The notes: generated by a model from the letters alone, not told the origin. 63,995 nucleotides of DNA, filler included, from a bacterium (GCA_037439705.1; 7 parts of 7 records of this genome joined end to end with filler, not necessarily neighbours in it), one strand, 5' to 3'. Shown: positions 1-63,497, numbered from the whole stretch's first letter. Program-made: numbers and translations.

Positions 1-1746
1 ATTGTGCTTTCTGTTAAACTCTTCCTGAATTCTCCTTCTCCTGGTTGTCTCCCCGACGGCAATTTTCATGGATTCTGTAATTGTATCTGCATAAAATATC
101 ACTGTTCCATTCACATTCCTTGCAGCCCTTCCACATGTCTGAATCAAAGCAGATGCAGACCTAAGAAATCCCTCCTTATCTGCATCCAGAATTGCCACAA
201 GTGAAACTTCAGGGATATCAAGCCCTTCCCTCAAAAGATTTATACCTATGAGAACATCAAACTCACCTTTTCTCAAATCCCTTATTATGTCCATCCTTTC
301 AAGGGGTTCTATGTCAGAATGAAGGTATCTAACCCTTATTCCGAGTTCAGAATAGTATGCGGTAAGCCTTTCAGCCATTCTTTTGGTAAGGGTTGTAACC
401 AGAACCCTCTCGTTCATCTCTATCCTCTTCTTTATTTCCTGAAGCAGGTCGTCAACCTGTCCTTCTGCCTTTTTCACGATTATTACGGGGTCAAGAAGAC
501 CCGTTGGCCTTATTATCTGTTCAATTATGATCCCATTTGATTTTTCTATTTCATATTTTGCAGGGGTTGCCGAAACATATATCACCTGATTAACCCTTTC
601 TTCAAATTCTTCAAACTTTAAAGGTCTGTTGTCAAGGGCTGAAGGGAGCCTGAAACCATATTCAACAAGGGTTTCCTTTCTTGACCTGTCTCCTCTGTAC
701 ATCCCTTGAAGTTGTGGAATTGTCATGTGGCTTTCATCTATTATGAGAAGAAAGTCTTCTGAAAAATAATCAAGAAGAACTGGAGGGGGCTCACCAGGTT
801 TCCTTCCTGTAAGATGCCTTGAATAGTTCTCAATGCCATGGCAGTATCAGGTGTTTTCTAACATCTCAATGTCAAAGTTAGTTCTCGTCAAAAGCCTTTC
901 AGCCTCAAGATACTTACCCATTTTTTTCAGTTCCTTTACCCTTTCTTCAAGCTCAATTTTTATGTTCTCAATTGCTATTTTCAACCTTTCAGCTGGAGTC
1001 ACATAATGGCTTGCTGGATAAACGGTAATTTTTTCCACCTCCCTTAAAATTTTCCCCCTGAAAGGGTCTATTTCAAGAAGTTTTTCCACCTCATCTCCAA
1101 AGAACTCAATCCTGTAAGCCTTTTCCTCCTCAGAAGCAGGGAAAACATCAATTATATCCCCTCTTACCCTGAACCTGCCTCTGTAAAAATCATACTCACT
1201 TCTTTCATACTGAATCTCAGCAAGCTTTCTTATAACCCAGTTTCTATCTATTGTCTCCCCCTTTTTAAGGTGAAGGAGCATTCCATAATAAGCTTCCGGT
1301 GAACCAATTCCATAAATGCAGGAAACACTCGCTACAACTATAACATCGTTTCTTTCAAGAAGGGAGGTGGTAGCTGAATGTCTCATTCTGTCTATGTCAT
1401 CGTTTATTGTCGCTTCTTTTTCAATATAGGTATCTGTTTCTGGGATATAAGCCTCAGGCTGATAGTAATCATAATAGCTTATGAAGTATTCAACAGCATT
1501 TTCGGGAAAAAGCGCTTTGAGTTCTGTATACAGCTGGCCAGCAAGTGTCTTGTTATGGGCAATGATAAGGGTTGGCTTGTTTACATTGGCAATGACATTG
1601 GCTATGGCAAATGTTTTACCTGAACCTGTGACGCCGAGAAGGACCTGATGTTTTACCCCATTTAATATATTCTCGGTAAGTTTTTCAATAGCCTGAGGCT
1701 GGTCGCCCTTTGGTTCAAATTCTGTTACAAGTTTGAATCTTGCCAT
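1..1746 (-). CDS. uvrB: Excinuclease ABC subunit B (3' truncated by window edge; one in-frame TGA at 847-849)
   Basis: [19 protein letters not shown] and [13 protein letters not shown] motifs. The frame continues past the TGA as [12 protein letters not shown]...[11 protein letters not shown] to position 1. The TGA sits at the conserved Gly of [13 protein letters not shown]. Confidence 0.97.
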
Positions 1747-3116
1747 TATATGAATTTAGAAATTGTATAAAAAAGCCTCTGTATGAGTTCAGTTCTATTA
1801 AATGGGTAGTCCCTCCATATTCTCAATATCCTTTTCGGGTCTCCGTAAAATTTAATATACGCTCTTCTGTAAATTTTTTTAATCACATCATCCAGAAATT
1901 TCCACCTTCTGAAATAATCATACGCCTGCGGGTCTTTTTCGTGATTTTTTTCTGAGAGGGAAAACAACTCTGTTCCTTTGTGTGGAATGACAATGAAAAA
2001 CATTGCAGTATGGAGCGGTGAATTCAGAGCAAAATCAACTGTCATCTTCATTTCTTCCTCTGTTTCTGTAGGAAATCCAAGCATAAAAAAACCATTAGAA
2101 AATATGCCGAGAGAAACTGCATCCTCAATGGCTTTTTTCGCCTTATCAAGGTCAACATATTTCTTTATAAATTTTTGAAGTCTCGGAGAACCTGTCTCTA
2201 TCGCGAATGAAATAAAATATGTTCCTCCTTTTCTCATAACCTCAAGGGTATTTCTTGATAACCTGTCTGACCTCAATCCGTTCGGGAATGAAAAACGCAG
2301 TTTAAGTTTTCTTCTCATTACCTCTTCAAATATATTAACAACCCTTTCTTCGTAGAAGTTGAATATATCATCAAATACCTCAACCTCTTTAACGCCCAGT
2401 TTTTTTGTTATTTCCTCTATTTCATCCACCACATTCACTGGACTTCTCATCCTCGGCTTCTTCCCGAACATGTTGTGGCAGTATATACACCTAAAAGGGC
2501 ATGCCCTTGATGTGATTACCGCCATATAAGGAATTTTTTGACCCACCGATGTGAATCTAAATTTTTTGAAGTAATGATTTGGATTTATAATGTCCCAGGC
2601 AGGAAATGGAAGTTCATCAAGGTTCTCTACAAAATCAGGCTCTCCTGTAAAAATCATCTTTCCGTTTTCCCTCATGTAAATCCCTTTTATTTCTGAGGGC
2701 TTCTTTCCGCTTCCAAGAGACCTCACCAGCTCAAAAAATGTTTTCTCCCCTTCTCTTATAACTGCATAATCAATGTTTCTGTCGGTCATAACATCATCCG
2801 GGTATGATGTAGGATGCGGACCACCCACAACAACCGGAATATTTCTTGATACTTCCTTCACCTCTTTTGCAATGGAATGCATCTTGGGAGCCTCAACCGT
2901 TATCGCACTTATACCTACAATATCAGGCTTGAACTCCTTTATCCTTTCTTTTATTTCTCCGTCCCTTGAAAACTCAACCCTTGTATCTATTATTTTTATC
3001 TTTGCACCTTTTTCCTTTTCCCTCAAAAAACTGGTAATATACATAAGTCCAAGAGGAGGCGAAACCCCCCTGTTATAATAATGAATGTATGAAGATTTTA
3101 TCAAAAGAATCCGCAT
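1746..3116 (-). CDS. B12-binding domain radical SAM protein
   Basis: N-terminal PPLGL...PDIVGIS...VVVGGPH cobalamin-binding domain; [11 protein letters not shown] CxxxCxxC motif; FMLGFPTET. Confidence 0.92.
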
Positions 3117-12719: not shown

Positions 12720-13214
12720 ATGGGGTTTATCTTATTTTTATTTTTCTCAACAATTATAAAGGATTTCTCCCTAAATGAACTGGCAAAGACCTCTGACCTC
12801 ATAGTTCAGGGTGAGGTTCTGGAAATTTCCTCCAGAATGGAATCAAAACACATATACACCTATGTAAAAGTGAAAATTTCAAATTCCTTCAAGGGAGATT
12901 TTCCAGATGCAGTGACATTGAAAATAAAAGGTGGAAAAATTGGAAATATTGTGGAGAAAGTATCAGGAAATCCATCCTTTGAAAAGGGCGAAAGGGTTAT
13001 ACTTTTTCTAAAGAAAAGGGGAGAATTTTTTTATCCCTCCGGTATGGCTCTCGGTAAATTTAAAATAATAAATGAAAACGGGATTGATTTTGTCATAAAT
13101 AATGCAGAAGGCTTATCAGTTTACAAAGATGGGAGAATAGTTAAGCCTGAGGAGAGGAGATGGGGGTATGAGGAATTTGTTCTCATGATAAGGAGGCTTC
13201 TTGAGGAAAGATAA
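12720..13214 (+). CDS. Exported hypothetical protein (TIMP-like/OB-fold or protease prodomain-like)
   Basis: Hydrophobic N-terminus; SLNELAKTSDLIVQGEV...VKVKISNSFKG...FEKGERVILFL...GMALGKF pattern. Confidence 0.6.
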   Translation: MGFILFLFFSTIIKDFSLNELAKTSDLIVQGEVLEISSRMESKHIYTYVKVKISNSFKGDFPDAVTLKIKGGKIGNIVEKVSGNPSFEKGERVILFLKKRGEFFYPSGMALGKFKIINENGIDFVINNAEGLSVYKDGRIVKPEERRWGYEEFVLMIRRLLEER

Positions 13215-14238
13215 AATTTTTTTTCTTTTTATTTATTTGATATCTTCGGGTTTTAATGTTTATAAAACAGGAGATGGGATAGCAGTAAAGTGGCCGAGGG
13301 AATCAATTCCTGTTGGGTTTTACATAAATGAAAAAGGTTCAGATGACATAGCGGATATGAACTCCATTATTAATGAAGTAAATCAATCTTTTAAGGCATG
13401 GGAAGTATATGGAAGCTTCATAAAGAGCAATTATCTCGGAACCACCCCTCTAATCCCTGAAAAAGAAACTGGAACGAATAAGGAGATTAAAAATGTTGTT
13501 GGATGGGTTGAGGAGAACTGGGAGGATGATGCGGGTGCTATCGCCATAACAACAGTTATCTATTATGAGGATACAGGAGAGATCATTGAGGCTGATATGG
13601 CTTTGAACGGAGTTAATTTTAAATGGACGCTCAATCCTCCCTCTCCATGCCCTTCTAACAATTTAGTTGACCTGAGAAATGTCATAACCCATGAGGCAGG
13701 TCATTTCTTCGGACTGGACCATTCAAACATTGAAGGAGCCACAATGTATCCCTCATCTCCTCCATGCGATACTGAAAAAAGAGACCTCGCTCCTGATGAT
13801 ATAAACGGCATAATATATCTTTATCCTAAAGATGGAATTCCTGTTATTGAAAGTATTTATCCTGAAAAGGGCTCAAATTCTGAAAGCAATTTTGAACTAA
13901 ACATCTACGGAAAAGGTTTCTCAAATTCCGTATTCGTTCACCTCATAAATCGTTCATCAACTATAAAAGCATATTCCACACAGACTATAAGTGCAGAGCA
14001 GATAAAAGCATATTTTAACCTCATGGGAAAAGAAGAAGGATTATATTCAGTCGTTCTTATAAACAATCCAGGAGAAACCCCGTATACAGCCATCCTTGAG
14101 AACTCATTTGAAATTGTAAGCGGACCTTCGGATTATGTAAGTGAAGAGGGATGCGGATGCTCATCATCCAGCACGCTCAATCCTTTTATATTCCTTTTTC
14201 CCCTTTATTTTATTTTCAAACATGTTTCCCGTAATTAA
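13201..14238 (+). CDS. Matrixin (M10) family metalloprotease with IPT/TIG-like domain and MYXO-CTERM-like tail
   Basis: HEAGHFFGLDH zinc motif; ATMYP Met-turn; DDINGIIYLYP; C-terminal GCGCSSS + hydrophobic stretch + basic end. Confidence 0.88.
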   Translation: MRKDKIFFLFIYLISSGFNVYKTGDGIAVKWPRESIPVGFYINEKGSDDIADMNSIINEVNQSFKAWEVYGSFIKSNYLGTTPLIPEKETGTNKEIKNVVGWVEENWEDDAGAIAITTVIYYEDTGEIIEADMALNGVNFKWTLNPPSPCPSNNLVDLRNVITHEAGHFFGLDHSNIEGATMYPSSPPCDTEKRDLAPDDINGIIYLYPKDGIPVIESIYPEKGSNSESNFELNIYGKGFSNSVFVHLINRSSTIKAYSTQTISAEQIKAYFNLMGKEEGLYSVVLINNPGETPYTAILENSFEIVSGPSDYVSEEGCGCSSSSTLNPFIFLFPLYFIFKHVSRN

Positions 14239-15901
14239 AAGGAACTGGAAAAAAAGGGAAGGAAATGGACATGAAAATATAGAAAGGGAACTGCAAGTTT
14301 CTTCATCTGTCGCTAAGGTCTTGAGAAACAGAGGAATAAAGGAGCCTGAAGAGGTTTCAAATTTTATAAATCCGTCCTTGAAGGAATTAACCGAGCCATA
14401 CCTAATAAAAGATATGAAAAAGGCTGCGGAAAGGATTTATACAGCGATAAAGAAAAAGGAAAAAATCTGCATATACGGAGACTACGATGCGGATGGACTA
14501 TGCGCCTCAGCAATTCTTTACGACTTTTTGTCCCTCCACGGAGCAAATCTTACAGTATTTGTTCCACATCGGATAAAGCACGGATACGGTTTTCACGAAG
14601 AGATAGTTTTAAAACTGAAGACAAAAGGAGTAAGGGTAATAGTCACAGCGGATTGTGGAATAAACTCATTTTCTGCCTGTGAAAGGGCAAAAAATTTTGG
14701 AATAGATGTGATAATCACAGACCATCACCTTCCATCAGGAAAAATTCCTCCAGCCTTTGCAATTCTTGACCCATCAATTAAAGGAAGTGGCTTCAAGGAC
14801 GAATTTCTCTGTGGAGCAGGAGTTGCCTTTTATCTGTGCATAGGATTGAGAAAATACATAAGGGAAATAGGTGAATACAATGAAATAAAAGAACCAAATC
14901 TTGCTACATTTCTTGATCTGGTCGCAACCGCTACTGTTGTGGATGTGGCTCCATTGAGAAACGAAAATCGCATAATGACAAAGATAGGGCTTGATGTTTT
15001 GAGAAAGACAAAGCGGGAAGGGTTGAGGGCATTGATTAAGGAAAGCGGGCTGTCTTTTGAAAACCTTTCCACATTTCATTTAAGTTTTGTTATAGGTCCA
15101 AGAATAAACGCTGCTGGAAGGGTATCTGACCCAATCTCAGCGCTTCACCTTCTTCTGACAAGGGATACCCTCTCTGCTTCAAGAATTGCAAAAGAACTGA
15201 ACAATAAAAATCAGGAGAGACAGGCAATTGAGAAAGAAATACTTGAGGAAGCCACGAAAATGGTTGAGGAACTTCCGGAGGAAGATAAAGCAATTGTGCT
15301 GTTTTCCGATAACTGGCATCCCGGCGTAATAGGAATTGTAGCATCAAAAATAGCAGAAAAATTTTATCGCCCTGTTCTTCTTGGAACAAAGGATGGAGAT
15401 ATTCTCAGGTTTTCTGCAAGAAGCATAGAAGGGATTCACATAACAAACATCTTAAGAAATTTTGAAAAAAATTTTATTTCCCTCGGCGGTCATGCATCCG
15501 CTACTGGTTTTGTTCTTAAAAAAGAAAATTTAGATGAATTTAAAAGTTCTTTTTTGAAATATGTAAACGAAAAGGTAAAACTGGGAATCCCGTTCATTGA
15601 GTATGATGAGGAAGCCAGTCCCTCTTCCCTTTCAGAAAAAGATGTTGAAATTTTATCCTATCTTGAGCCATTTGGAGAGGGAAATCCTGAGCCCGTATTT
15701 CTTGTAAGAAAGGTGAAATTAATAAATCCGAGGAAGGCAAAAAAGGGATTTGCGTACACCCTCATTGATAACGGAAAAGGATATACTGCTTTTTCAGACG
15801 AATCCTTTCCCTGTGGAGACCTTGAGGTGCTTTATACTCCGTTTCTCAACAGGGAAGGGAAATTATCTCTGAGAATCATTGATGTAAGGGAAAGGGGATA
15901 A
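14222..15901 (+). CDS. recJ: Single-stranded-DNA-specific exonuclease RecJ
   Basis: IYGDYDADG; HGYG; TADCGI; ITDHH; PRINAAGR; GGH; LEPFGEGNPEP. ATG 14222 is the likely start. Confidence 0.96.
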   Translation: MFPVIKRNWKKREGNGHENIERELQVSSSVAKVLRNRGIKEPEEVSNFINPSLKELTEPYLIKDMKKAAERIYTAIKKKEKICIYGDYDADGLCASAILYDFLSLHGANLTVFVPHRIKHGYGFHEEIVLKLKTKGVRVIVTADCGINSFSACERAKNFGIDVIITDHHLPSGKIPPAFAILDPSIKGSGFKDEFLCGAGVAFYLCIGLRKYIREIGEYNEIKEPNLATFLDLVATATVVDVAPLRNENRIMTKIGLDVLRKTKREGLRALIKESGLSFENLSTFHLSFVIGPRINAAGRVSDPISALHLLLTRDTLSASRIAKELNNKNQERQAIEKEILEEATKMVEELPEEDKAIVLFSDNWHPGVIGIVASKIAEKFYRPVLLGTKDGDILRFSARSIEGIHITNILRNFEKNFISLGGHASATGFVLKKENLDEFKSSFLKYVNEKVKLGIPFIEYDEEASPSSLSEKDVEILSYLEPFGEGNPEPVFLVRKVKLINPRKAKKGFAYTLIDNGKGYTAFSDESFPCGDLEVLYTPFLNREGKLSLRIIDVRERG

Positions 15902-15924
15902 GAAACAGAAAATTCAAATTTTTC

Positions 15925-15952
15925 TTGACTTTTAAAATTTTGGTGTTATTTT
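15925..15952 (+). promoter_or_regulatory. Putative sigma70 promoter of the Ni/Co uptake operon
   Basis: TTGACT (15925-15930), N16, TGn-TATTTT; RBS AGGAGGT at 15970. Confidence 0.55.
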
Positions 15953-15969
15953 TTTAAAAAAAATAACAC
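15943..15969. promoter_or_regulatory. Perfect inverted repeat GTGTTA-N15-TAACAC, NikR-type operator
   Basis: GTGTTA TTTTTTTAAAAAAAA TAACAC overlaps the -10 and +1 region upstream of a nikM/cbiM operon; matches the widely spaced deltaproteobacterial NikR box. Confidence 0.75.
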
Positions 15970-15981
15970 AGGAGGTGGAAG

Positions 15982-16794
15982 ATGAAAAAAGAAGATGGAC
16001 GAAGGGAAAATGGAAAATGGATCGGAGGGATGCTCATGGGTTTAGGGTTTATTCTCTTTCCGGCAACTGCCTTCTCACATCATGCCCTTGAATACATGGA
16101 TGTGGAATCATACTCCATAGCGGGAAAGAAAGAATCGGTCTTCTATCTGAGATATGATTACTTTGTTGACGACAAATCAGATGCAAGTCTTGACCACTGG
16201 GAGTTAACGCCCGGAATTTCATACGGAATTCTGAAAAGAGTGATGTTTGACGCCCACATCCATCTTTCCAAATTCGGAAGAGGGCATTTTTTAGAGGGAA
16301 TATCAGAAGAAGAAACTTCTCCATTCTTTGAAGCCATTGCTCCATCTTTAATCATCCAGCTTACAAAATACAAACAGCTTCCCGTGGATATTGCCCTTTC
16401 CCTCTGCTACGAATATCCGTTTCATCGCTCAAGAAAACTCATAGGTGGAACCCATACTTTTGAAGGAAAACTCATTCTGAGCAGAGACTTTGGCGTCCAC
16501 AGCAACATAACCCTCAATGCAGGTGGCTCAATAGATGAAAATGGAGATTATGAAGTTTTATGGATGCTTGGAGCAAAAATCCCTCTCACATCTCAGGCGC
16601 ATGGAATTGCTGGTGGAATAGAGATTGAAGGAACCCATACAGAAGAGGAAGGTGCGATTATCTTTCTTCCGGGGATATACTTTCCAATCTCCCAGAGCAT
16701 AAGGATGAAAGCTGGTTTCGGAGCAGGCTTCACATTAAATGAGAAAACAGTATGGACGGAGAAGGCTGCGGTTCAGTTGATGTATGTTTTCTGA
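15982..16794 (+). CDS. Putative outer-membrane beta-barrel channel, first gene of the Ni/Co operon
   Basis: Signal peptide ending ATAFS followed by HHALEY; amphipathic strands; C-terminal VQLMYVF (terminal Phe, BAM signal). Confidence 0.7.
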   Translation: MKKEDGRRENGKWIGGMLMGLGFILFPATAFSHHALEYMDVESYSIAGKKESVFYLRYDYFVDDKSDASLDHWELTPGISYGILKRVMFDAHIHLSKFGRGHFLEGISEEETSPFFEAIAPSLIIQLTKYKQLPVDIALSLCYEYPFHRSRKLIGGTHTFEGKLILSRDFGVHSNITLNAGGSIDENGDYEVLWMLGAKIPLTSQAHGIAGGIEIEGTHTEEEGAIIFLPGIYFPISQSIRMKAGFGAGFTLNEKTVWTEKAAVQLMYVF

Positions 16795-16803
16795 GGTGAA
16801 AAT

Positions 16804-17406
16804 ATGAAGTTAAAAATGAAAACATTTATCTTTTTCTTCATCTTCTTTATTCCATCCATTTCAACTGCCCACGATTTCTGGATTTTTCGTTCAGGAAATG
16901 AGGTCAGAATCTACGGAGGTCACGACTTTCCACAAACAGAGATGGCACCCGGAAAGAACATAGCAGTTCATTCCTATCTTTATGGAAAAGGGGGAATAAA
17001 GGAACTAATTCTTGAAAGAGGCGAGAATTTCCTGTTTTCAAAAGGGATTGAAGAGAGCGGTTTGCTTGCCTTTTCTTTTGAGAGGGGAGAAAAGGTGGTA
17101 TATTGCGGATTTTACATTCCTGAAGAAGAAAACATAATAAAAGAAGAACTCGTGAAAAAAGTTTGTGGAGATTCATTTTCCATTTCCAAAAAAATTCAAA
17201 CAGTCAAAAACGAAAAGGAAGTGGGTATAGAATTTTCACCAGATTTGGGGCTCTCATGGACGCTTTATACAGAAAAAGGAGATAAAAAAACACTCTTTCC
17301 TGACGCCAGCGTAAGAATATCTTTTAAGGTGAAAGATAAAGGGCTTTTCCTTCTTCTGAGCGAACTGAATGGAAAGCCATTATCAATAGTGGTGGGGGTA
17401 AAATGA
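16804..17406 (+). CDS. DUF4198/NikK-like periplasmic protein
   Basis: Signal peptide then AHDFWI...GGHDFP, typical DUF4198 N-terminus; located in a nik/cbi operon. Confidence 0.6.
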   Translation: MKLKMKTFIFFFIFFIPSISTAHDFWIFRSGNEVRIYGGHDFPQTEMAPGKNIAVHSYLYGKGGIKELILERGENFLFSKGIEESGLLAFSFERGEKVVYCGFYIPEEENIIKEELVKKVCGDSFSISKKIQTVKNEKEVGIEFSPDLGLSWTLYTEKGDKKTLFPDASVRISFKVKDKGLFLLLSELNGKPLSIVVGVK

Positions 17407-17828
17407 TGCTTTTTCTCATTTCCTTCATGATTATCATGCACGGAGTTGAGACAGAGATAAGAGAGGTGAAGGGTGTAGAGATTATCGTTCAATATGCGGA
17501 TGGCACGCCAATGGCTTCTGCGGATGCAAAAATTGTAAGTCCCTCAGGGAAAGAAAAGAACTTACAAACGGATAATGAAGGAAGGGTTGTTTTTTATCCT
17601 GATGAAAACGGAAAGTGGAGAATTGAAATAGATGATGGTCTCGGGCACGGGGTGGTTAAAGAAATTGAATTCAGTGGAGTCTTAAAAACGGAAGAGAAAG
17701 GAAGGCTCACGCAATGGCAAAAAATTGTTACGGGTATCAGCATAATCCTTGGAATAAGCGGAATAATCTCCTATGCCCTCCTGATAAAGGAGAAAAGAAG
17801 ACATGCACATACCCGAAGGTTTTCTTGA
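17403..17828 (+). CDS. NikL/CbiL-like accessory membrane component
   Basis: HGV...QYADGTPM...QTDNEGRVVFYPDENGKWRI..DDGLGHG plus C-terminal TM helix. Confidence 0.75.
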   Translation: MMLFLISFMIIMHGVETEIREVKGVEIIVQYADGTPMASADAKIVSPSGKEKNLQTDNEGRVVFYPDENGKWRIEIDDGLGHGVVKEIEFSGVLKTEEKGRLTQWQKIVTGISIILGISGIISYALLIKEKRRHAHTRRFS

Positions 17829-18402
17829 CCTGAAAACACTTGCCATAACTGATGGAATTGCAGGGGCACTAATTCTTTTATCTGCAAAAAAGGTGGAAAG
17901 GGAAATGTCTTCAGATTCCATAGCAAGGATGGGGATTGCTACTGCTTTTGTTTTTGCAGTCAACATGTTTGCTTTTCCCGTCGCAGGAGGGACATCAGCT
18001 CATCTCACAGGTGTTGTTCTCATCTCGGCAATTCTTGGAGGATGGCAGGGTTTTATATGTGCATCGTCCGCACTCTTCCTTCAGGCAATCCTCTTTCAGC
18101 ACGGCGGAATTTTGAGCCTTGGTGCAAACATATTGAACATAAGCGGATGGGGAGCACTGTTTGGTTCTATCACAAGAAAATCGGGAAGGTTTTATTCTGT
18201 TTCAGGAGGTATCCTTTCGTTCCTTGCAGTAATGTGCGGAAGCATCACCTGTGCGTTTGAGTTATATCTTTCAGGCAGGGGGTCCTTTTTAAGGGGAGCA
18301 ACCGCAATGGCTGTCGGGAATCTCTTTCCCGCTTTCATTGATGGAGTAATTACATTTTTTGTGTTAAAATTATTCAAAAAAATTGAAGCACAGTCCAGTT
18401 GA
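17803..18402 (+). CDS. cbiM: Ni/Co ECF transporter S component (NikM/CbiM)
   Basis: MHIPEGFL N-terminus; GGTSAHL; QAILFQHGGILSLGAN. Confidence 0.93.
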   Translation: MHIPEGFLDLKTLAITDGIAGALILLSAKKVEREMSSDSIARMGIATAFVFAVNMFAFPVAGGTSAHLTGVVLISAILGGWQGFICASSALFLQAILFQHGGILSLGANILNISGWGALFGSITRKSGRFYSVSGGILSFLAVMCGSITCAFELYLSGRGSFLRGATAMAVGNLFPAFIDGVITFFVLKLFKKIEAQSS

Positions 18403-18982
18403 CAGGTTTGCTTATAAAAAAAGCCTGATTCACCTCCTTCCCCTTGAAGTAAAAGGACCCCTCTTCTTTATTCCAATACTCATCAATTCTTTGCCCTTAA
18501 ATTCTTATTTCCTGCCCTCCTTTTTCATAATTGTTGCTCTTATTCTTTTTAAAATTTCTGATATTCCTTTAAAATTTGTATTAAAGAGAGTTCTGATGGC
18601 TTTTCCATTTCTAATTCTTGTCATTTTTATGAATCCACCTGATAAAGCAATATTTTTTTTAAAAATTTTATCTTCAATTCTATTCTTTCTCCTTTTCCTT
18701 ACAACAACACCTTTTCTGTCCATCATGAAAGGAATGGAAAAACTGGGTGTACCTGAGGTATTCAGATTGCTCACAGCCTTTGGATACAGATACTTTTTTC
18801 TTCTGACCGATGAGACAGAAAGAAGTATAAGGGCATGGAGGATGAGAGGAGGGGAATTGAAAAAAATCCGCTTTGGAAGCATTTCAGGAATCCTTTTTTC
18901 TATTTTCGCAAGGAGTATGAAGAGGGCTGAAAGGATTGGAACGGTTATGAAGATGAAGGGATTGTATGAAGAAAATAATTGA
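18383..18982 (+). CDS. cbiQ: ECF transporter T component (NikQ/CbiQ)
   Basis: SLIHLL; LTTTPF..I..GMEKLGVP; YRYFF; RSMKRAERI. Confidence 0.9.
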   Translation: MKHSPVDRFAYKKSLIHLLPLEVKGPLFFIPILINSLPLNSYFLPSFFIIVALILFKISDIPLKFVLKRVLMAFPFLILVIFMNPPDKAIFFLKILSSILFFLLFLTTTPFLSIMKGMEKLGVPEVFRLLTAFGYRYFFLLTDETERSIRAWRMRGGELKKIRFGSISGILFSIFARSMKRAERIGTVMKMKGLYEENN

Positions 18983-19670
18983 GGTAGAAGGACTTACCTT
19001 TTTTTATCCAGAAACAGAAAATGGTATAGAGAACATAACCTTTAATGTGGAGGAAGAAGAAGTCATAGGGATAATAGGTCCAAATGGTTCCGGAAAAACA
19101 ACCCTTCTTTTTTCAATATGTGGGCTTTTGAAGGCAAAAGGAAAGGTAATTATTGATGGAACCCTCCTTTCATCAAGAAGTTTTAATGGAATAAGGGAAA
19201 AAATAGGCTTTGTCTTTCAGGACCCCGATGACCAGCTTTTCATGCCAGTGGTCTTTCAGGATGTTGGATTTTCTCTCTTTCAAAAGGGCTATGATGAGAA
19301 ATTCGTCCTTGAAAGGCTGAAGGAGGTTTTGAAAAAAGTCGGGCTTGAAGGATGTGAGGAAAGGGAAAGCCATAAACTGAGTTACGGCGAAAAGAAGAAG
19401 GTCTGTATAGCAAGCGCTATTATCCATGACCCAAAAATTCTTATCCTTGATGAACCAACAGCATGGCTTGACCCTAAAGGGAAAAGAGAACTTTTAGAGA
19501 TAATAAAATCTTTGAAGAAAACAACATTGATTGCGGGACACGACCTTGAGTTCCTTGAAAAACTAACAACAAAAATTATGGTCCTTGAAAACGGAAGAAA
19601 AATTGCCTTTTCCACAAAGGAAGAAATTTTAAAAAACCCTTCCCTCCTTCAGAGGATAGGGTTTGAATAA
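18966..19670 (+). CDS. cbiO: ECF transporter ATPase (NikO/CbiO)
   Basis: GPNGSGKTT; FQDPDDQLF; LSYGEKK; ILDEPT. Confidence 0.93.
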   Translation: MKKIIEVEGLTFFYPETENGIENITFNVEEEEVIGIIGPNGSGKTTLLFSICGLLKAKGKVIIDGTLLSSRSFNGIREKIGFVFQDPDDQLFMPVVFQDVGFSLFQKGYDEKFVLERLKEVLKKVGLEGCEERESHKLSYGEKKKVCIASAIIHDPKILILDEPTAWLDPKGKRELLEIIKSLKKTTLIAGHDLEFLEKLTTKIMVLENGRKIAFSTKEEILKNPSLLQRIGFE

Positions 19671-19719
19671 ACCGGGTCAAAAAATTTAAACACTCATTCC
19701 GTATAGAAAGATATGAAAG

Positions 19720-20118
19720 AGATATGAGGACATAAACCCTTCCTGCTTCATCTGAAACTGCTATGTCCATTTTTCCGTCTCCATTAATATCGGCGATAAC
19801 TGGCAAAGACCTCACAGAATTTTTCAAAAGATATGTCCAGACAATACTGCCATCCTCGGCGTTTAACACATAAAGTTTATGTTCAGAAGAATCGACAACT
19901 ACTTCAGGGTTTCCATCTTCGTCAAAATCTGTTATCGCGGGTGAAGAATCTACTTCTCCATCTGTTGTGAATGACCAGAGAAGTGAACCATCATTTCCTT
20001 TAAAATCCATGGGAACCCACATTGAAACCTTAAACCTGCCAAGAGCATCTACTTTGGTTTTTGCCATTTCATTATTAAAATTTTCCCATCTCCGTTGAAA
20101 TCCATCTGCATTTTCACA
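19720..20118 (-). pseudogene. FG-GAP/PQQ-like beta-propeller gene remnant
   Basis: SSPAITDFDEDGNPEVV and PVIADINGDGKMDI repeats; a further DFNGDGK in another frame at the contig edge; ORF runs on antisense into cbiO. Confidence 0.55.
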
Positions 20119-20218
20119 NNNNNNNNNNNNNNNNNNNNNNNNNNNNNNNNNNNNNNNNNNNNTTAATTAATTAANNNNNNNNNNNNNNNNNNNNNNNNNN
20201 NNNNNNNNNNNNNNNNNN
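20119..20218. other. Artificial contig-joining spacer
   Basis: N-TTAATTAATTAA-N, 100 nt. Confidence 0.98.
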
Positions 20219-20236
20219 ATACGGCACATAAATTGG

Positions 20237-21795
20237 TTAATTTTCTACAATTTTGTATATTTTTACAATTTTGTATTTTTTAAGCCTGTAATTCAGCTGC
20301 CTATGAGTAATGCCGAGTTTTATAGCAGCATCTTTAATTTTCCAGTTTGAATCCTTTAACGCCTTAATAATTGTGTTTCGCTCTATTTCATCAAGAGGAT
20401 AGGATTTTACCATCCCTGTCTCATTATCTCCAGATGCTACTTTTATTTCCGGATAGATGACTGGTAAAGGTAATTCATCCTGGTCAACGATCTTCTTATT
20501 TGAAAGAACGACAATTCGTTGAATGCAATTTTCCAGTTCACGGACATTCCCAGGCCATGGATATTCAATTAAGACTCTTAGCGCTCTATCAGTTAATTTA
20601 ACTATTTTATTATAGATTTTGTTGAATCTAACTAAAAAATCTTCAACAAGAAGCGGGATATCCTCCTTTCTCTCTCTGAGGGGAGGTAAAATTATAGGGA
20701 CGATATTCAACCGGTAATAAAGGTCTGACCTGAACCGACCCTCTTCAACCATATTTTCAAGATTCCTGTTTGTCGCTGCAATTACCCTAACATCCACCTT
20801 TATTGTTTTTGAACTCCCTACTCGTTCAAAAGAGTGTTCCGCAAGAAACCTTAACAATTTTGATTGAACATTCAATGGAACCTCACCAATCTCATCAAGA
20901 AAAATAGTTCCTCCATTAGCAATTTCAAATCTTCCTTTCCTCCTCTCGGTAGCCCCTGTAAACGCACCTCGTTCATACCCGAACAACTCACTTTCTATTA
21001 AGGTCTCTGGAATTGCAGGACAGTTTACTTTTATAAATGGCTTGTCTGAACGCTTGCTTAAAGAATGTATTGCATTTGCAACAAGCTCCTTTCCTGTCCC
21101 GCTCTCTCCACGCAACAACACTGTGGCATCAGTAGGAGCGACCTGCTTTATAATTTTAAACACCTCCTGCATCTGTTTGCTAATGCCTACTATTCCTTGA
21201 AAACTAGATTTCCTCTCCAGTTGCTCCTTAAGCATCACATTTTCTTCAATAAGTTTGTTCTTCGTTTTTTCCATCTCTTTCAAAAGATGAATCACATGTG
21301 AAAACATTGAAGAAACGACTTTAAAAAACCTCAATTCCTCATTAACGGTAATCTCGTCCGTAAATTCCCTCTCTATGTACAACACGNNNNNNNNNNNNNN
21401 NNNNNNNNNNNNNNNNNNNNNNNNNNNNNNNNNNTATTATGAATTTCCATTGGGATTGCGAGCCTTGTGGGATTTTCCAGAACCACTTCGGGGATACCCA
21501 ACTTAATTGGACGCCCAATGAACCCTCCATCTGGTCTTTGCGAAAAATTTTTAACCTCATCACGCGTATAGCCATATGCATAGTTTATTTTCAACATTCC
21601 TGAATTATTGTCATATTCCATTATGGCTGCTCTTTTAAGACCAAGAAAATCAACAAGCACCCTCAATGCTGAGTTAATGCTAATTTTTGGATTCGGTGAG
21701 GAACCAATAACCTTATTGACTTCATATAGCGTAGTCATTTCAATTGTTCTTCGCTTGAGCAGATTTGCGTAGCCTTTTATTGTTCTTGGACCCAC
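20237..21795 (-). CDS. NifA-like GAF-domain sigma54-dependent transcriptional activator (interrupted by 48-N gap 21387-21434)
   Basis: [14 protein letters not shown]-terminus; [30 protein letters not shown]-terminal Fis-type HTH. Confidence 0.92.
20246..20275. repeat. Tandem TACAATTTTGTA x2 (18-bp period) creating a TTGTA-N6-TACAA dyad within the activator's last codons
   Basis: Copies at 20246-20257 and 20264-20275; encodes [12 protein letters not shown]. Confidence 0.8.
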
Positions 21796-21815
21796 ATTTC
21801 TATTTTATGCAAATT

Positions 21816-21850
21816 TTGAAAAATTTCAACTAAATTGTAAAAAATTACAA
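21816..21850. promoter_or_regulatory. Candidate upstream activator sequences (two dyads)
   Basis: TTGAAAAATTTCAA (21816-21829) and TTGTAAAAAATTACAA (21835-21850), about 50-85 bp upstream of the -24 box. Confidence 0.55.
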
Positions 21851-21899
21851 TAAAGGTTATCCTTTACTTACAGTCAGTATATTTTATATCTACATATTT

Positions 21900-21916
21900 C
21901 TGGCACAGAACTTGTA
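21900..21916 (+). promoter_or_regulatory. Sigma54 (-24/-12) promoter of nadE-glnA
   Basis: CTGGCAC-AGAAC-TTGTA versus consensus YTGGCAC-N5-TTGCW (one deviation at -12); adjacent divergent bEBP. Confidence 0.7.
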
Positions 21917-21942
21917 ATAAAAATGACATGAAAGGAGTTTTT

Positions 21943-22755
21943 GTGAATTATAGAAAATTGGCGACAGAAATTTCTCAATGGATAAAGAAAGAGGTTGAGA
22001 GTGCAAAATTAAAAGGGGTGGTTTTCGGATTGAGTGGAGGGGTGGATTCATCGGTGGTGGGAGTGCTTTGCAAAAATGTATTCCCAGATGCTCATCTCGC
22101 CCTCATACTCCCCTGCTTCTCATCCGAAGAGGATACAGAGGACGCAAAACTTGTTGTTGAAAATTTTGGGTTAAATTCAAAAATAATAAATGTTGAACCT
22201 GTGTTTCTGGAATTTGCAAAAATTCTTGAGATTGACCCGCATTCCCGTGAACTCCCTGTCGTCAACATAAAACCCAGGTTAAGAATGGTAACCCTTTATT
22301 ATTTTGCAAATCGCTTGAATTACCTTGTAGTAGGAACAGGAAACAAGTCAGAACTCACTATGGGATATTTCACAAAATACGGAGACGGAGGAGTTGATAT
22401 ACTTCCGCTCGGCGATTTAACAAAAACGGAGGTTTACAAACTTGCTAAAGTTCTCGGAATACCTGAAAGGATAATAAAAAAACCACCATCAGCAGGTTTA
22501 TGGCCAGGTCAAACAGATGAAGAAGAAATGAAAATAAAATACAAAGAACTTGATAAAATAATTTCGGTTTTTGAAAAAAAGCAGAATCTTTCAGGAAGCA
22601 AAAAGGACCTTGCGGAAAAAATTCTTACTAAATCAAAAGTGGCAATTCATAAGCTCAGACCACCAAAAATTTTTAAAGTAAAAATGAAAAAACTTAAAAA
22701 TAAAAATATAAAGGAGGTGCGGAATGAAAAAGGAAGAACTTTTAAAACTTCTTAA
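21943..22755 (+). CDS. nadE: NH3-dependent NAD+ synthetase
   Basis: GLSGGVDS; NIKPRLRM; GTGNKSE..GYFTKYGDG; PPSAGLWPGQTDE; no glutaminase domain. GTG 21943 follows AAAGGAG. Confidence 0.95.
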   Translation: MNYRKLATEISQWIKKEVESAKLKGVVFGLSGGVDSSVVGVLCKNVFPDAHLALILPCFSSEEDTEDAKLVVENFGLNSKIINVEPVFLEFAKILEIDPHSRELPVVNIKPRLRMVTLYYFANRLNYLVVGTGNKSELTMGYFTKYGDGGVDILPLGDLTKTEVYKLAKVLGIPERIIKKPPSAGLWPGQTDEEEMKIKYKELDKIISVFEKKQNLSGSKKDLAEKILTKSKVAIHKLRPPKIFKVKMKKLKNKNIKEVRNEKGRTFKTS

Positions 22756-61215: not shown

Positions 61216-63497
61216 TGGAAGAGCAGTTAAAATTTTTTTATTATAAGGCGCTTGTGTTTATTAAAGCCAATCCCTGGATTATATGGATTGGAATTGGAAT
61301 AGGGCTACTTATTCTTGCAGGGATTATAATTATAATAGGGGTAGTCCGAAAAAAGAAAAGAATAAAAATTTTTGAGACTGCTCAAAAAAATCCAAAAGTG
61401 CGTGCTGAAGCCTTGTATAAAAAGAAAGAGTACAGGAAGGCTCTACCAATTTTTCTTGAACTCGGAAACTTTGAGATGGCTGCAGATTGTCTTGAAAAAA
61501 TGGGAAAACTTCAGGATTCGGCTAAACTCTATGAGAAGGCTACAAAGTATGAAAAAGCATCGGAAATTTACCTCAAGATGAAAGACCCATTAAGAGCAGC
61601 GGAGTGCTATTTGAAAGGTGGGAAGCATTTGACAGCAGCAGAGATTTATGAAAAAGAAAATGAAAAAGAAAAAGCAGCCTCAATATATAAGAAGGGCGGA
61701 TTTTATGAAAAGGCTGCACTTCTTTATTCCGAAATTGGAAAATTTAAAGAATCCTCTTCGTGCTGGTTTGAAGCCTACAAACGCGCTGAAGGACCTTTAG
61801 AAGGGAAGAAAAAGGAATATCTTATCAAAGCAGGTGAGATGCTTATGAAGGTAGGAAATACAAAAGAGGCTCTTCAGATGTTCAGGATGGCTGGCGACCT
61901 GGAGAAGGCTGGGAAATTTGCGGAAGAAAAGGGAGATTATATGGCTGCTGGAGAATATTATGAGGAGGCAGGATTTTTTGAATCATCAGCAAGGGCATTT
62001 AAAAGGGCAGGTGATGAAAGAAGAAGTTACTTAAATATGGCAAGGTTTTACGAATCACAGGGTGAGTTTGTCAGGGCAGGAGAATTTTATGAAAAAGTTG
62101 ACAACTGGGCAGATGCTTCAAGCTGTTTTTCCAGGGGTGGAGAATTGGTGAGGGCAGCTGAAGCATCTGAAAAAGGTGGTTTTTTCAGAGAAGCAGGAGA
62201 AATTTATCTTTCTCTCGGGATGAAGGAGAAAGCAGGAGAATGCTTTTAAAGGGCAGGGGAGTATGAGAGAGCATTTTCCATTTATAAGGAAATACAGAAC
62301 TATCACAAACTTGCTTCACTGATGGTGAAGACTGAGAGGTTTATTGAAGCGGCAAACCTTTACTTAAAAATGAAACTTTACAACGAAGCAGTGTCAGTGC
62401 TTTCAAAAGTTTCTTCCTCCAGTGAAGAATATAAGGAAGCCATTGTCTTAAAGGCAAAAATTTTTGATGAGCAGTGTAAAAAAGAAGAGGCAGTTAAAAC
62501 ATTAGAGGAATTTTTGAAAAACGAAGTAATTTCAGAAAAAACAGTTGACCTGTTTTACTTATATGCAACATTGGTTGAAAAAATGGGTGATACAAAGAAG
62601 GTTCTTACAATATATACAAAGATATCTGAACTGAATCCCTCCTTCAGGGATGTTTCCCAGAAAATAAATGAGATTCAGAAAAAAACAGCGAAAATACCCA
62701 TAACTCAGGAGGAAAGATATGAAATTCTTGAGGAGGTTGGAAGGGGAGGAATGGGGGTTGTGTATAAAGCGAAGGACAGGGTTTTAAACAGGATAGTAGC
62801 TTATAAGGTTTTACCTGTTACCATGAAGGACGACCCAGCAGCAGTTGATAATTTTTATAAAGAGGCAAGGGCAGCAGCTGCTCTCAATCATCCTAATATA
62901 GTTACAATCCATGATTTTGGAGTTGATAAAGATGGTCAGTATTTTATTACAATGGAATTCATAGAAGGCGAAACAATCAAAGCAAAACTTAAAAAGACTC
63001 AGAGACTCCCAATTAAGTTTGCTGTGGAGGTCGCAAAGGAGGTATGCAAAGGATTACATTTTGCTCATACTAAAAATATACTTCACAGGGATATAAAAAG
63101 TGCAAATATAATGATTGCTAAGGGAGGATATGTGAAGATAATGGATTTTGGATTAGCAAAGATATTGCACGATGCAATGAGTGCTCACACAGTTGTAGGA
63201 GGGACCCCACATTATATGTCTCCGGAACAGCTCCTTGGTGAGCCCCTTGATGGAAGGACGGATATATATTCTCTTGGAATAACAATTTATGAAATGATTG
63301 CAGGAAGGGTTCCATTTACGAAGGGCGATGTAGGATATCATCATATTCATACTCCACCTCCTAAACTTTCAAACATTGTGCCATCAGTTCCTCCTGAACT
63401 TGAAAAAATTGTAATGAAGTGTATAGAAAAAAAGAAAGAGAACAGGTTCAACAGCGTGGTTGAGCTGTTTGAGGTACTTAAGGCTTTAAAAATTTAA
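61215..63497 (+). CDS. Membrane-anchored TPR-like repeat Ser/Thr protein kinase (one gene with in-frame TAA at 62247-62249)
   Basis: N-terminal TM; AAECY/AGEYY repeats continue in frame past the TAA (RAGEYERA); kinase motifs GRGGMGVVY, HRDIKSAN, DFG, GTPHYMSPE. Confidence 0.9.

Follow-up and report, generated by a model that had tools for sequence, protein, structure and literature searches.

The closest described relatives of the system considered here are nickel transporters of the NikKLMQO type, for which a 2004 study proposed that NikMQO has additional periplasmic components, NikK and NikL (Rodionov et al.; PMC545781). In the S component TtNikM2, nickel is bound by four nitrogens from Met1, His2 and His67 (PMC3945884), and the DUF4198 protein IsDUF4198 (PDB entry 9GCB), which is also stabilised by Zn and Co, holds Ni(II) with a Kd of 18 nM through a facial set of three nitrogens from its N-terminal His (amine and imidazole) and His18 (PMC12537917). 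The crossing of the outer membrane by nickel is settled only for a few TonB-dependent receptors; a 2024 survey, in the part available to us, gives such receptors and unspecific porins as the only routes at this membrane, and the porins are said there to pass cations poorly (PMC11247825). We analysed a locus that may add a further route. It lies at positions 15982-19670 (+ strand) of a 63,995-nucleotide stretch of DNA, composed of seven parts of the bacterial genome GCA_037439705.1 joined end to end with filler and referred to below as the window, and comprises six genes, the first of which encodes a predicted outer-membrane beta-barrel protein.

We consider it likely that this region is a NikR-controlled (nickel-repressed) high-affinity nickel uptake operon spanning the envelope, in which the barrel is a passive nickel-selective channel working without TonB. 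A role for the barrel in acquiring nickel at the outer membrane can be stated with greater confidence and appears highly probable. The most likely identity of the barrel is a new family of nickel-specific outer-membrane channel that does not use TonB. The gene arrangement reported in a preliminary description of the stretch was confirmed, and its interpretation as a nickel import pathway is supported by comparative evidence drawn from sequences; none of the observations named there as refuting it was made.

The six tightly coupled open reading frames (ORFs) named in that description were all found on the + strand, separated by a 9-nt gap after the first and then overlapping by 4, 26, 20 and 17 nt. 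They encode (i) the barrel protein of an unnamed family (15982-16794; 270 residues), whose 12-strand fold is predicted from structural models, (ii) a NikK-like periplasmic protein, apparently a divergent DUF4198 member (16804-17406; 200 residues), (iii) a NikL-like protein (17403-17828; 141 residues), (iv) NikM, the S component of an energy-coupling factor (ECF) transporter (17803-18402; 199 residues; PF01891, 3.1e-46), (v) NikQ, the T component (18383-18982; 199 residues; PF02361, 3e-19, and TIGR02454, 4.7e-23, with only the C-terminal half matching), and (vi) NikO, the ECF ATPase (18966-19670; 234 residues; PF00005, 5.8e-32, and TIGR04520, 2.1e-57). On these sequence matches the last three genes can be firmly assigned as nikM, nikQ and nikO. 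NikM starts with MHIPEG, as had been noted, and carries M1, H2, H67, Q94, G101, G102 and N109 at TtNikM2 numbering, so that H67 is present in addition to the first two residues. The window copies of the barrel protein and of the second gene product gave no Pfam or NCBIfam match even at E<=1. Taken as sequences, genes 2-6 are a divergent member of the described NikKLMQO type.

The barrel gene stands directly behind a putative NikR operator. The sequence GTGTTAT-N13-ATAACAC (15943-15969; no strand assigned), 13 nt upstream of the barrel start codon, is the sole match in the 64-kb window, and an exact match to GTGTTAY-N13-RTAACAC occurred in 0 of 100 shuffles; with two mismatches allowed, the shuffle mean was 0.20. 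The operator fits the published NikR consensus, GTGTTAC-N13/14-GTAACAC, which is that of delta-proteobacteria, and sites such as GTGTTAt-N13-GTAACAC precede nikKMLQO and nikMQO (PMC545781, Table 4). The second hexamer of a candidate sigma-70-like promoter (15925-15952, + strand; TTGACT, spacer of 16 nt, TATTTT, with TG ahead of the second hexamer; 9/12 matches) is located inside the box as a candidate -10 element. It should be noted that the promoter scan was not above chance, with 10 such sites in the region compared to a shuffle mean of 9.0. A Shine-Dalgarno sequence, AGGAGG (15970-15975, + strand), could be read 6 nt ahead of the ATG at 15982.

The same arrangement was found in related loci, 61 of which were retrieved from a genome collection. 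Allowing one mismatch per half-site, the 640 kb made up by the window and these loci contain 32 NikR-pattern sites, 16 of them no more than 200 nt before the barrel gene (in the window and 15 loci), 10 where an upstream nikR begins and six elsewhere; judged by sequence and position, 26 putative NikR boxes, including that of the window, are well placed. A nikR gene was detected in 35/61 loci (tblastn with the NikR of locus L032), where in most cases it shares the strand of the barrel gene and stops immediately upstream of it. In L032 it lies directly downstream of the barrel gene (NikR_C, 3e-29). The box is kept by barrel genes that have no ECF genes with them (L011, L031, L035 and L049). No cobalamin or NiCo riboswitch was seen, since an Rfam scan of 14000-22000 returned nothing at E<=1 and scans of 11 related loci returned only tRNAs. 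A [NiFe]-hydrogenase large subunit is encoded in all five related genomes checked, and none of the ten large window ORFs examined encodes a nickel enzyme.

The barrel gene is also linked to the transporter genes themselves. Among 48 loci with at least 2 kb of downstream flank, nikL follows the barrel gene within 2.5 kb in 40. Where at least 4 kb was available (42 loci), nikL was found in 35, nikM in 30, nikO in 34, and nikL together with nikO in 34; the nikM count is a lower bound obtained by tblastn with the window protein. Of the eight other loci among the 48, two (L011 and L029) carry the barrel gene and a DUF4198 gene only (31 and 50 bits; Pfam cut-off 34), and in two (L031 and L035) an ORF of the size of the DUF4198 gene occupies the same place after the barrel. 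The remaining four are L032, L046, L049 and L058. The links of barrel homologues to metal transport and to NikR boxes, which the preliminary description had named as checks, were both borne out by these counts.

The barrel family is real but small, as judged by sequence searches. A word-indexed search found 30 relatives, whose only name was 'hypothetical protein' and none of which had a precomputed Pfam domain, while an exhaustive search of 1.84 billion cluster representatives gave 56 relatives at E<=1e-3, 16 of them at E<=1e-30. No significant Pfam match was obtained for any of the 30 members, the best barrel-type matches being Porin_2 (4 members, 0.031) and Phenol_MetA_deg (PF13557, COG4313; 1 member, E = 0.072), and the window protein did not match PF13557 at E<=1. 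The TonB-dependent-receptor domains PF00593 and PF07715 matched neither the window protein nor the members, and a search with the family profile found no PDB chain at E<=10. The family is distributed over WOR-3, the Verrucomicrobiota/Kiritimatiellia/Lentisphaerae group, Marinimicrobia, Krumholzibacteriota, Aminicenantes and others, in each case in metagenome-assembled genomes.

The small barrel first proposed from the sequence, 270 residues long and ending in Phe, is in keeping with the predicted structure. The mature protein of 238 residues has 12 predicted strands, and its last residue, F270, is invariant. AlphaFold2 run on the full-length alignment gave 12 strands and a mean predicted local distance difference test score (pLDDT) of 85; run on 35 aligned mature sequences, it gave 12 strands, a pLDDT of 93.3 with no residue below 50, and a predicted template modelling score of 0.87. 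In comparisons with known structures by Foldseek, FapF and the COG4313 channel ranked first, and PcoB (Cu, PDB 7PGE) was among the fold comparisons. Alignments to filled barrels (FapF, 4rl8, autotransporters) start at model residues 1-7, and at 4-7 in the group that includes 4rl8, which is aligned from its chain residue 1, whereas those to KdgM and NanC, which are empty barrels without an inserted N-terminus, start only at model residue 20. In Pput2725 (4rl8, COG4313), an N-terminal stretch of ~14 residues is folded into the lumen, which it enters from the periplasm (PMC4493636). From these two observations together, the conserved N-terminal segment of the barrel probably lies in the lumen of the modelled structure, as in COG4313. 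The earlier remark that the barrel shows no plug therefore stands for a plug domain of the TonB-dependent-receptor kind, but not for the lumen as such, which the N-terminal segment probably occupies. In a protein language-model atlas the barrel adjoins Phenol_MetA_deg clusters (0.97). At rank 18 of the same atlas (score 0.97) there is a cluster of 52 Bacteroidota proteins with the Pfam domain PF28045, whose name 'HAEPLYID' resembles an N-terminal motif akin to HHAMEYIE; this word was not found in the open-access papers and preprints searched.

Conservation in the barrel is strongest at its N-terminal histidines. His-His follows the predicted signal peptide directly in 54/56 full-length copies from the genome loci and the window, the other two (L043 and L048) having His-Gly. 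In an alignment of 30 sequences, H33, H34 and A35 are at least 90% conserved, and E37, S43, Y44, D59, H72, W73, E74, T76, M88, D90, H92, H94, E117, E144, N179, E214 and F270 are invariant. The conservation of the mature N-terminal histidines is therefore not a matter of chance. They belong to a conserved 19-residue segment, HHAxEYIExESY, and span more than 10 phylum-level labels. Distant representatives (23-35% identity) keep HH(A/G)(K/R)(E/D)(Y/F) directly after the A of the predicted cleavage site, with the exceptions of P0058, P0061 and P0083.

In the window the predicted signal peptide is encoded by 15982-16077, and the predicted mature protein starts with His-His at 16078 (+ strand). The residue at -1 is A in 41 copies, G in seven and S in six (counted by eye), which is, by sequence, what signal peptidase I requires. 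A canonical site for this enzyme is thus predicted exactly where cleavage would expose His-His, as the preliminary description had supposed, and the barrel is no lipoprotein, because no Cys follows the cleavage site.

Besides the N-terminus, conserved positions map to the inside of the barrel. The polar, lumen-facing side of the strands, assigned from the strands of the model and the amphipathic hydropathy phase of the alignment, carries D59, H72, E74, T76, M88, D90, H92, H94, E144, N175, N179, E214 and K243. Assuming the standard topology with a periplasmic N-terminus, we infer from the model a ladder of potential ligands on strands 1-3, with H72, E74, D59 and H94 towards the outside, H92 and D90 in the middle and M88 on the periplasmic side. 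Positions 55 and 57, which are His in most homologues, are Y and R in the window protein.

The second and third gene products are recognisable mainly through their syntenic orthologues. PF10670 (DUF4198) was matched by 28/30 orthologues of the second (best 5.4e-21), the window copy being among the two that were not, and the orthologue profile found the PDB entries 9mhi (1.6e-5) and 9gcb (1.6e-3). The latter was deposited as 'Nickel ECF transporter, additional periplasmic component NikK'; the former, whose depositor's name differs, we take to be Zcp, following the PNAS paper. H23 (mature His1), W26, G39, H40 and E143 are invariant in the 30 orthologues, and H40, the second conserved His, occupies mature position 18. 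In N. gonorrhoeae, the DUF4198 protein Zcp binds zinc in the periplasm (PMC12663993), so the family is not confined to nickel.

The third gene product has a short signal peptide, then a domain resembling a beta-sandwich that contains DDGxGH, and at its C-terminus a membrane helix; such a hydrophobic helix occurs in all 22 orthologues. H13 (mature His1), Y31, D78, G81 and H82 are kept in this set, all but Y31 being invariant. The NikL model NF058648 matched all 22 orthologues at E<=1e-3 (best 1.6e-16), and the window protein at 6.5e-9 with 36 bits, under the curated cut-off of 100. A mature N-terminal His, which had been proposed for both proteins, is upheld by the invariant His1 in the two orthologue sets, but the residue that precedes it in the third gene product of the window, Met, does not fit as well. 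In one related locus (L012:2144-3220) the NikL-like and NikM frames are continuous without a stop, forming a 358-residue ORF with the NikM start MHISEG inside it. An internal start or an assembly error is the more likely explanation, because a true fusion would remove the free N-terminal amine of NikM.

In the mechanism that we infer, cleavage by signal peptidase would leave a free His-His N-terminus on the barrel, whose N-terminal segment would fold back into the lumen from the periplasmic side. Ni(II) would be stripped of water on the ladder of His, Asp, Glu and Met residues and chelated by the terminal amine and the imidazoles of the tip. It would then be handed to the NikK-like DUF4198 protein, with its brace of His1 and His18 (nanomolar Ni affinity in the characterised relative), and next to the membrane-anchored NikL-like protein (His1 and DDGxGH), finally reaching Met1-His2-His67 of NikM, where NikQ and NikO would drive import by ATP. 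The pull for net movement across the outer membrane would come from the tight periplasmic binders and from ATP hydrolysis, with no contribution from TonB. That the barrel binds metal, that the hand-over runs in this direction and order and that TonB is dispensable are all part of this proposal. A complex prediction for the mature barrel and the mature second gene product scored 0.00, which speaks neither for nor against binding.

As a speculation, the tip could serve as an adaptor between two types of site, as it offers both a His1 brace like that of DUF4198 proteins and a chelate of residue-1 amine and His2 like that of NikM. Because it would combine the DUF4198-type brace with the NikM-type amine/amide/imidazole chelate, it is proposed to act as a selectivity filter and swinging adaptor. 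We see about even chances for a relay with the tip in the lumen. The broader idea that an unbroken ligand-exchange chain over N-terminal amine/imidazole sites runs from the barrel tip through NikK and NikL to NikM, and that the barrel founds a wider 'N-terminal-His' class of outer-membrane metal channels, is tentative and on balance doubtful. The dedicated, TonB-independent Ni porin with a His relay of the preliminary description is supported by synteny, NikR boxes and conserved His residues; its statements on transport, TonB independence and hand-over keep the status of proposals.

A number of observations weigh against this reading. All 61 related loci come from metagenome-assembled genomes. 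In 8/48 loci with at least 2 kb downstream, nikL does not follow the barrel gene, and in two of these, L046 and L049, the neighbours of the barrel gene are unrelated. No nikR was found in the 64 kb of the window by tblastn with the NikR of L032. Within their respective sets, the NikK-like and NikL-like proteins of the window deviate most: the former has no DUF4198 match, carries a ~22-residue insertion with two Cys and lacks ~20 residues of the C-terminal half that all orthologues have, so that by its sequence it may be a degenerate or specialised copy, and the latter has Met at -1 and a signal peptide of only 12 residues, where its orthologues have S, G or A at -1. Cleavage sites were predicted by the -3/-1 rule only. 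The N-terminal segment has a pLDDT under 50 in the full-length model (residues 27-44) and averages only 73 in the mature model (residues 1-10), and its placement in the lumen is read from alignment ranges, which give the first and last aligned residue only. Genes for TonB and TonB-dependent receptors are present in 5/5 related genomes checked; the idea that the carrier organisms lack TonB systems was rejected on this account, and nothing forces a TonB-free route on them. In one locus (L058:3426-6516) a truncated barrel homologue, a 173-residue ORF whose match covers query residues 12-99 only, is immediately preceded by exbB, exbD, tonB and a gene for an slp lipoprotein.

The last point of this kind is a distant His-His subfamily of the HHGKDF type, found in 70 metagenome loci (L062-L131), without nik, DUF4198 or nikR neighbours. 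It was recovered by a metagenome scan with five closer sequences, 50/70 loci having 1.5 kb or more of flanking sequence at one end or both. Its members (proteins P0059-P0085) keep the mature His-His, followed by G-K/R-D-F. There is no dominant partner in these loci, the top neighbour cluster occurring in six of them; the contexts include a lysyl-oxidase-like gene (four loci), a TonB-dependent receptor (three) and ALAD on the opposite strand (six). The nickel assignment is limited to the HHA(M/L)E(Y/F) subfamily, because the HHGKDF type has no nik context, and barrels of the latter type may serve other metals.

Five other explanations were weighed against a nickel-ion channel. The first is that what passes the barrel is not the bare ion but a small chelate of nickel, for example Ni-(His)2, a Ni-carboxylate or a metallophore of the nicotianamine type, with His-His completing the coordination of the partly chelated metal. 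In the IsDUF4198 crystal only three protein nitrogens bind Ni, and malonate and water fill the rest (PMC12537917); a 12-strand COG4313-type barrel without its N-terminus would have a pore of 10-12 A (PMC4493636). NikM, on the other hand, takes the bare ion with four protein nitrogens (PMC3945884), and genes for metallophore synthesis are not among the recurring neighbours in the 61 loci, which are nikR, nikK, nikL, nikM, nikQ and nikO. We regard passage of a chelate as unlikely.

Alternatively, the barrel might be a non-conducting anchor, from which His-His extends as a 'fishing line' into the periplasm and buffers or holds nickel for NikK and NikL in the manner of an anglerase. Even-stranded outer-membrane barrels have periplasmic N-termini, which counts in favour of this view, as does the low confidence of the tip in the full-length model. 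Anglerases have already been put forward in print as a concept for N-terminal-His domains (PMC12537917). Apart from the tip, the strongest conservation lies on the polar lumen side of strands 1-3, 5, 7 and 9, which is hard to explain for an anchor, and the fold matches suggest an N-terminus within the barrel. An anchor role is accordingly rated as improbable, and a conducting channel is preferred.

Import of cobalt or of a wider range of divalent metals (Co, Zn), and not of nickel specifically, is decidedly improbable. The NikR boxes and the adjacency of nikR argue for nickel, as do the partners, which are NikL and NikK rather than CbiN, and neither the window region nor the 11 loci scanned yielded a cobalamin riboswitch. 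These points stand against the suitability of the CbiM/NikM site for Co(II) as well (PMC3945884), the NCBIfam names matched by the fourth gene product, all of which read 'cobalt transporter CbiM', and the metals accepted by DUF4198 proteins, namely Zn by Zcp (PMC12663993) and, as stabilising ions, Zn and Co by IsDUF4198 (PMC12537917).

It is very improbable that TonB, or some other motor of the inner membrane, powers the barrel by acting on its conserved N-terminal segment. Pairing of this segment with a partner in the periplasm is conceivable, TonB is encoded by the related genomes, and L058 has the exbB-exbD-tonB-slp genes described above. That locus is the only one of the 61 with exbB/exbD/tonB homologues, none occur in the window, and such a drive is further argued against by the small size of the protein (12 strands, 238 mature residues), which lacks a plug domain and has no Pfam match to TonB-dependent receptors. 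Finally, an ordinary COG4313-like channel for hydrophobic compounds with merely incidental nik neighbours is already disfavoured to the point of being negligible by the NikR box directly before the barrel gene, the synteny kept across many phyla, the invariant His, Asp and Glu, not hydrophobic, residues of the lumen and the PF13557 matches, limited to one of the 30 members (E = 0.072).

Some other features of the window were recorded. At 13201-14238 (+ strand) there is a gene for a 345-residue secreted-looking protein, the translation of which contains the metzincin-type motif HEAGHFFGLDH and ends in a Gly/Cys/Ser-rich stretch and a hydrophobic tail resembling a sorting signal. A sigma-54-type activator-like gene (20237-21795, - strand) apparently consists of two ORFs split by a run of N at 21387-21434, and pairs of 44-N runs recur ~10 kb apart through the window (10012, 20119, 30190, 40240, 49880, 59455). 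A eukaryote-type Ser/Thr protein kinase (62322-63497, + strand; Pkinase, 1.9e-54) and a B12-binding radical SAM protein (1746-3116, - strand) are unrelated to the nickel operon.

If the proposed function is correct, the barrel would be the first nickel-specific, NikR-controlled small-barrel channel. With it, a known importer would be completed to span the whole envelope, and the 'N-terminal histidine' principle of metal binding would be extended from soluble proteins to an outer-membrane channel. The proposal is open to testing on a small protein, of 238 residues when mature, with a proposed site of two residues. The family may have been overlooked through its occurrence only in metagenome-assembled genomes. 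In the open-access papers and preprints searched, we found neither a small NikR-regulated barrel nor a nickel-specific channel with a processed His-His.

Compared to its nearest structural counterparts, COG4313 Pput2725 (4RL8) and FapF (5O65), the barrel has a similar fold but no significant sequence relationship. Its lumen is lined by His, Asp and Glu in place of a hydrophobic path, its context is nickel and not hydrocarbons or amyloid secretion, and the free His-His terminus is unique to its family. TonB-dependent nickel receptors are 22-strand barrels with plug domains and need TonB-ExbBD, whereas the window barrel has 12 strands and no plug domain, with TonB genes adjacent in 1/61 loci. 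What it has in common with such receptors (FrpB4, FecA3, NikH) is to be, by prediction, a NikR-regulated nickel protein of the outer membrane (PMC11247825). Metal-selective, TonB-independent outer-membrane channels have been described for Mn (MnoP) and Cu (RopAe) (PMC6011978). As these and PcoB precede it, this kind of channel is already known; the window barrel differs from all three in metal and in family, presumably so for MnoP, and the accounts at hand report no processed N-terminal His-His for them.

With the anglerases Ang-1 and Ang-2 (HupE/UreJ permeases), the barrel would share a metal-capturing N-terminal His tip exposed by cleavage on a membrane transporter (PMC12537917). In anglerases the tip belongs to beta-sandwich domains on inner-membrane permeases, and here to an outer-membrane barrel; the words 'barrel', 'outer membrane' and 'porin' do not appear in that paper, which deals with signal strapping and N-terminal-His proteins. 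The second gene product and its orthologues share with IsDUF4198 (9GCB, Ni) and Zcp (9MHI, Zn) a signal peptide, His1, the second His and an 'LEIVP' core, the window copy being shorter, with an insertion and a deletion. TonB receptors are common neighbours of DUF4198 genes in PMC12537917, whereas the operon partner here is a small barrel.

The closest described system as a whole is NikKLMQO (PMC545781), with which genes 2-6 share NikK-like and NikL-like components, NikM, NikQ and NikO, the lack of NikN and the type of NikR box. The NikK-like and NikL-like proteins of the window are very divergent, with no PF10670 match in the former and 36 bits against a cut-off of 100 in the latter. No outer-membrane component is described for NikKLMQO in the accessible part of PMC545781, whereas in the window the barrel gene comes first, directly behind the operator. 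The description of the whole locus as a new system must be narrowed accordingly: genes 2-6 correspond to known NikKLMQO, a 2025 paper described the nickel site that DUF4198 forms with its N-terminal His (PMC12537917), and what is undescribed, as far as these sources go, is the barrel together with the notion of an unbroken relay.

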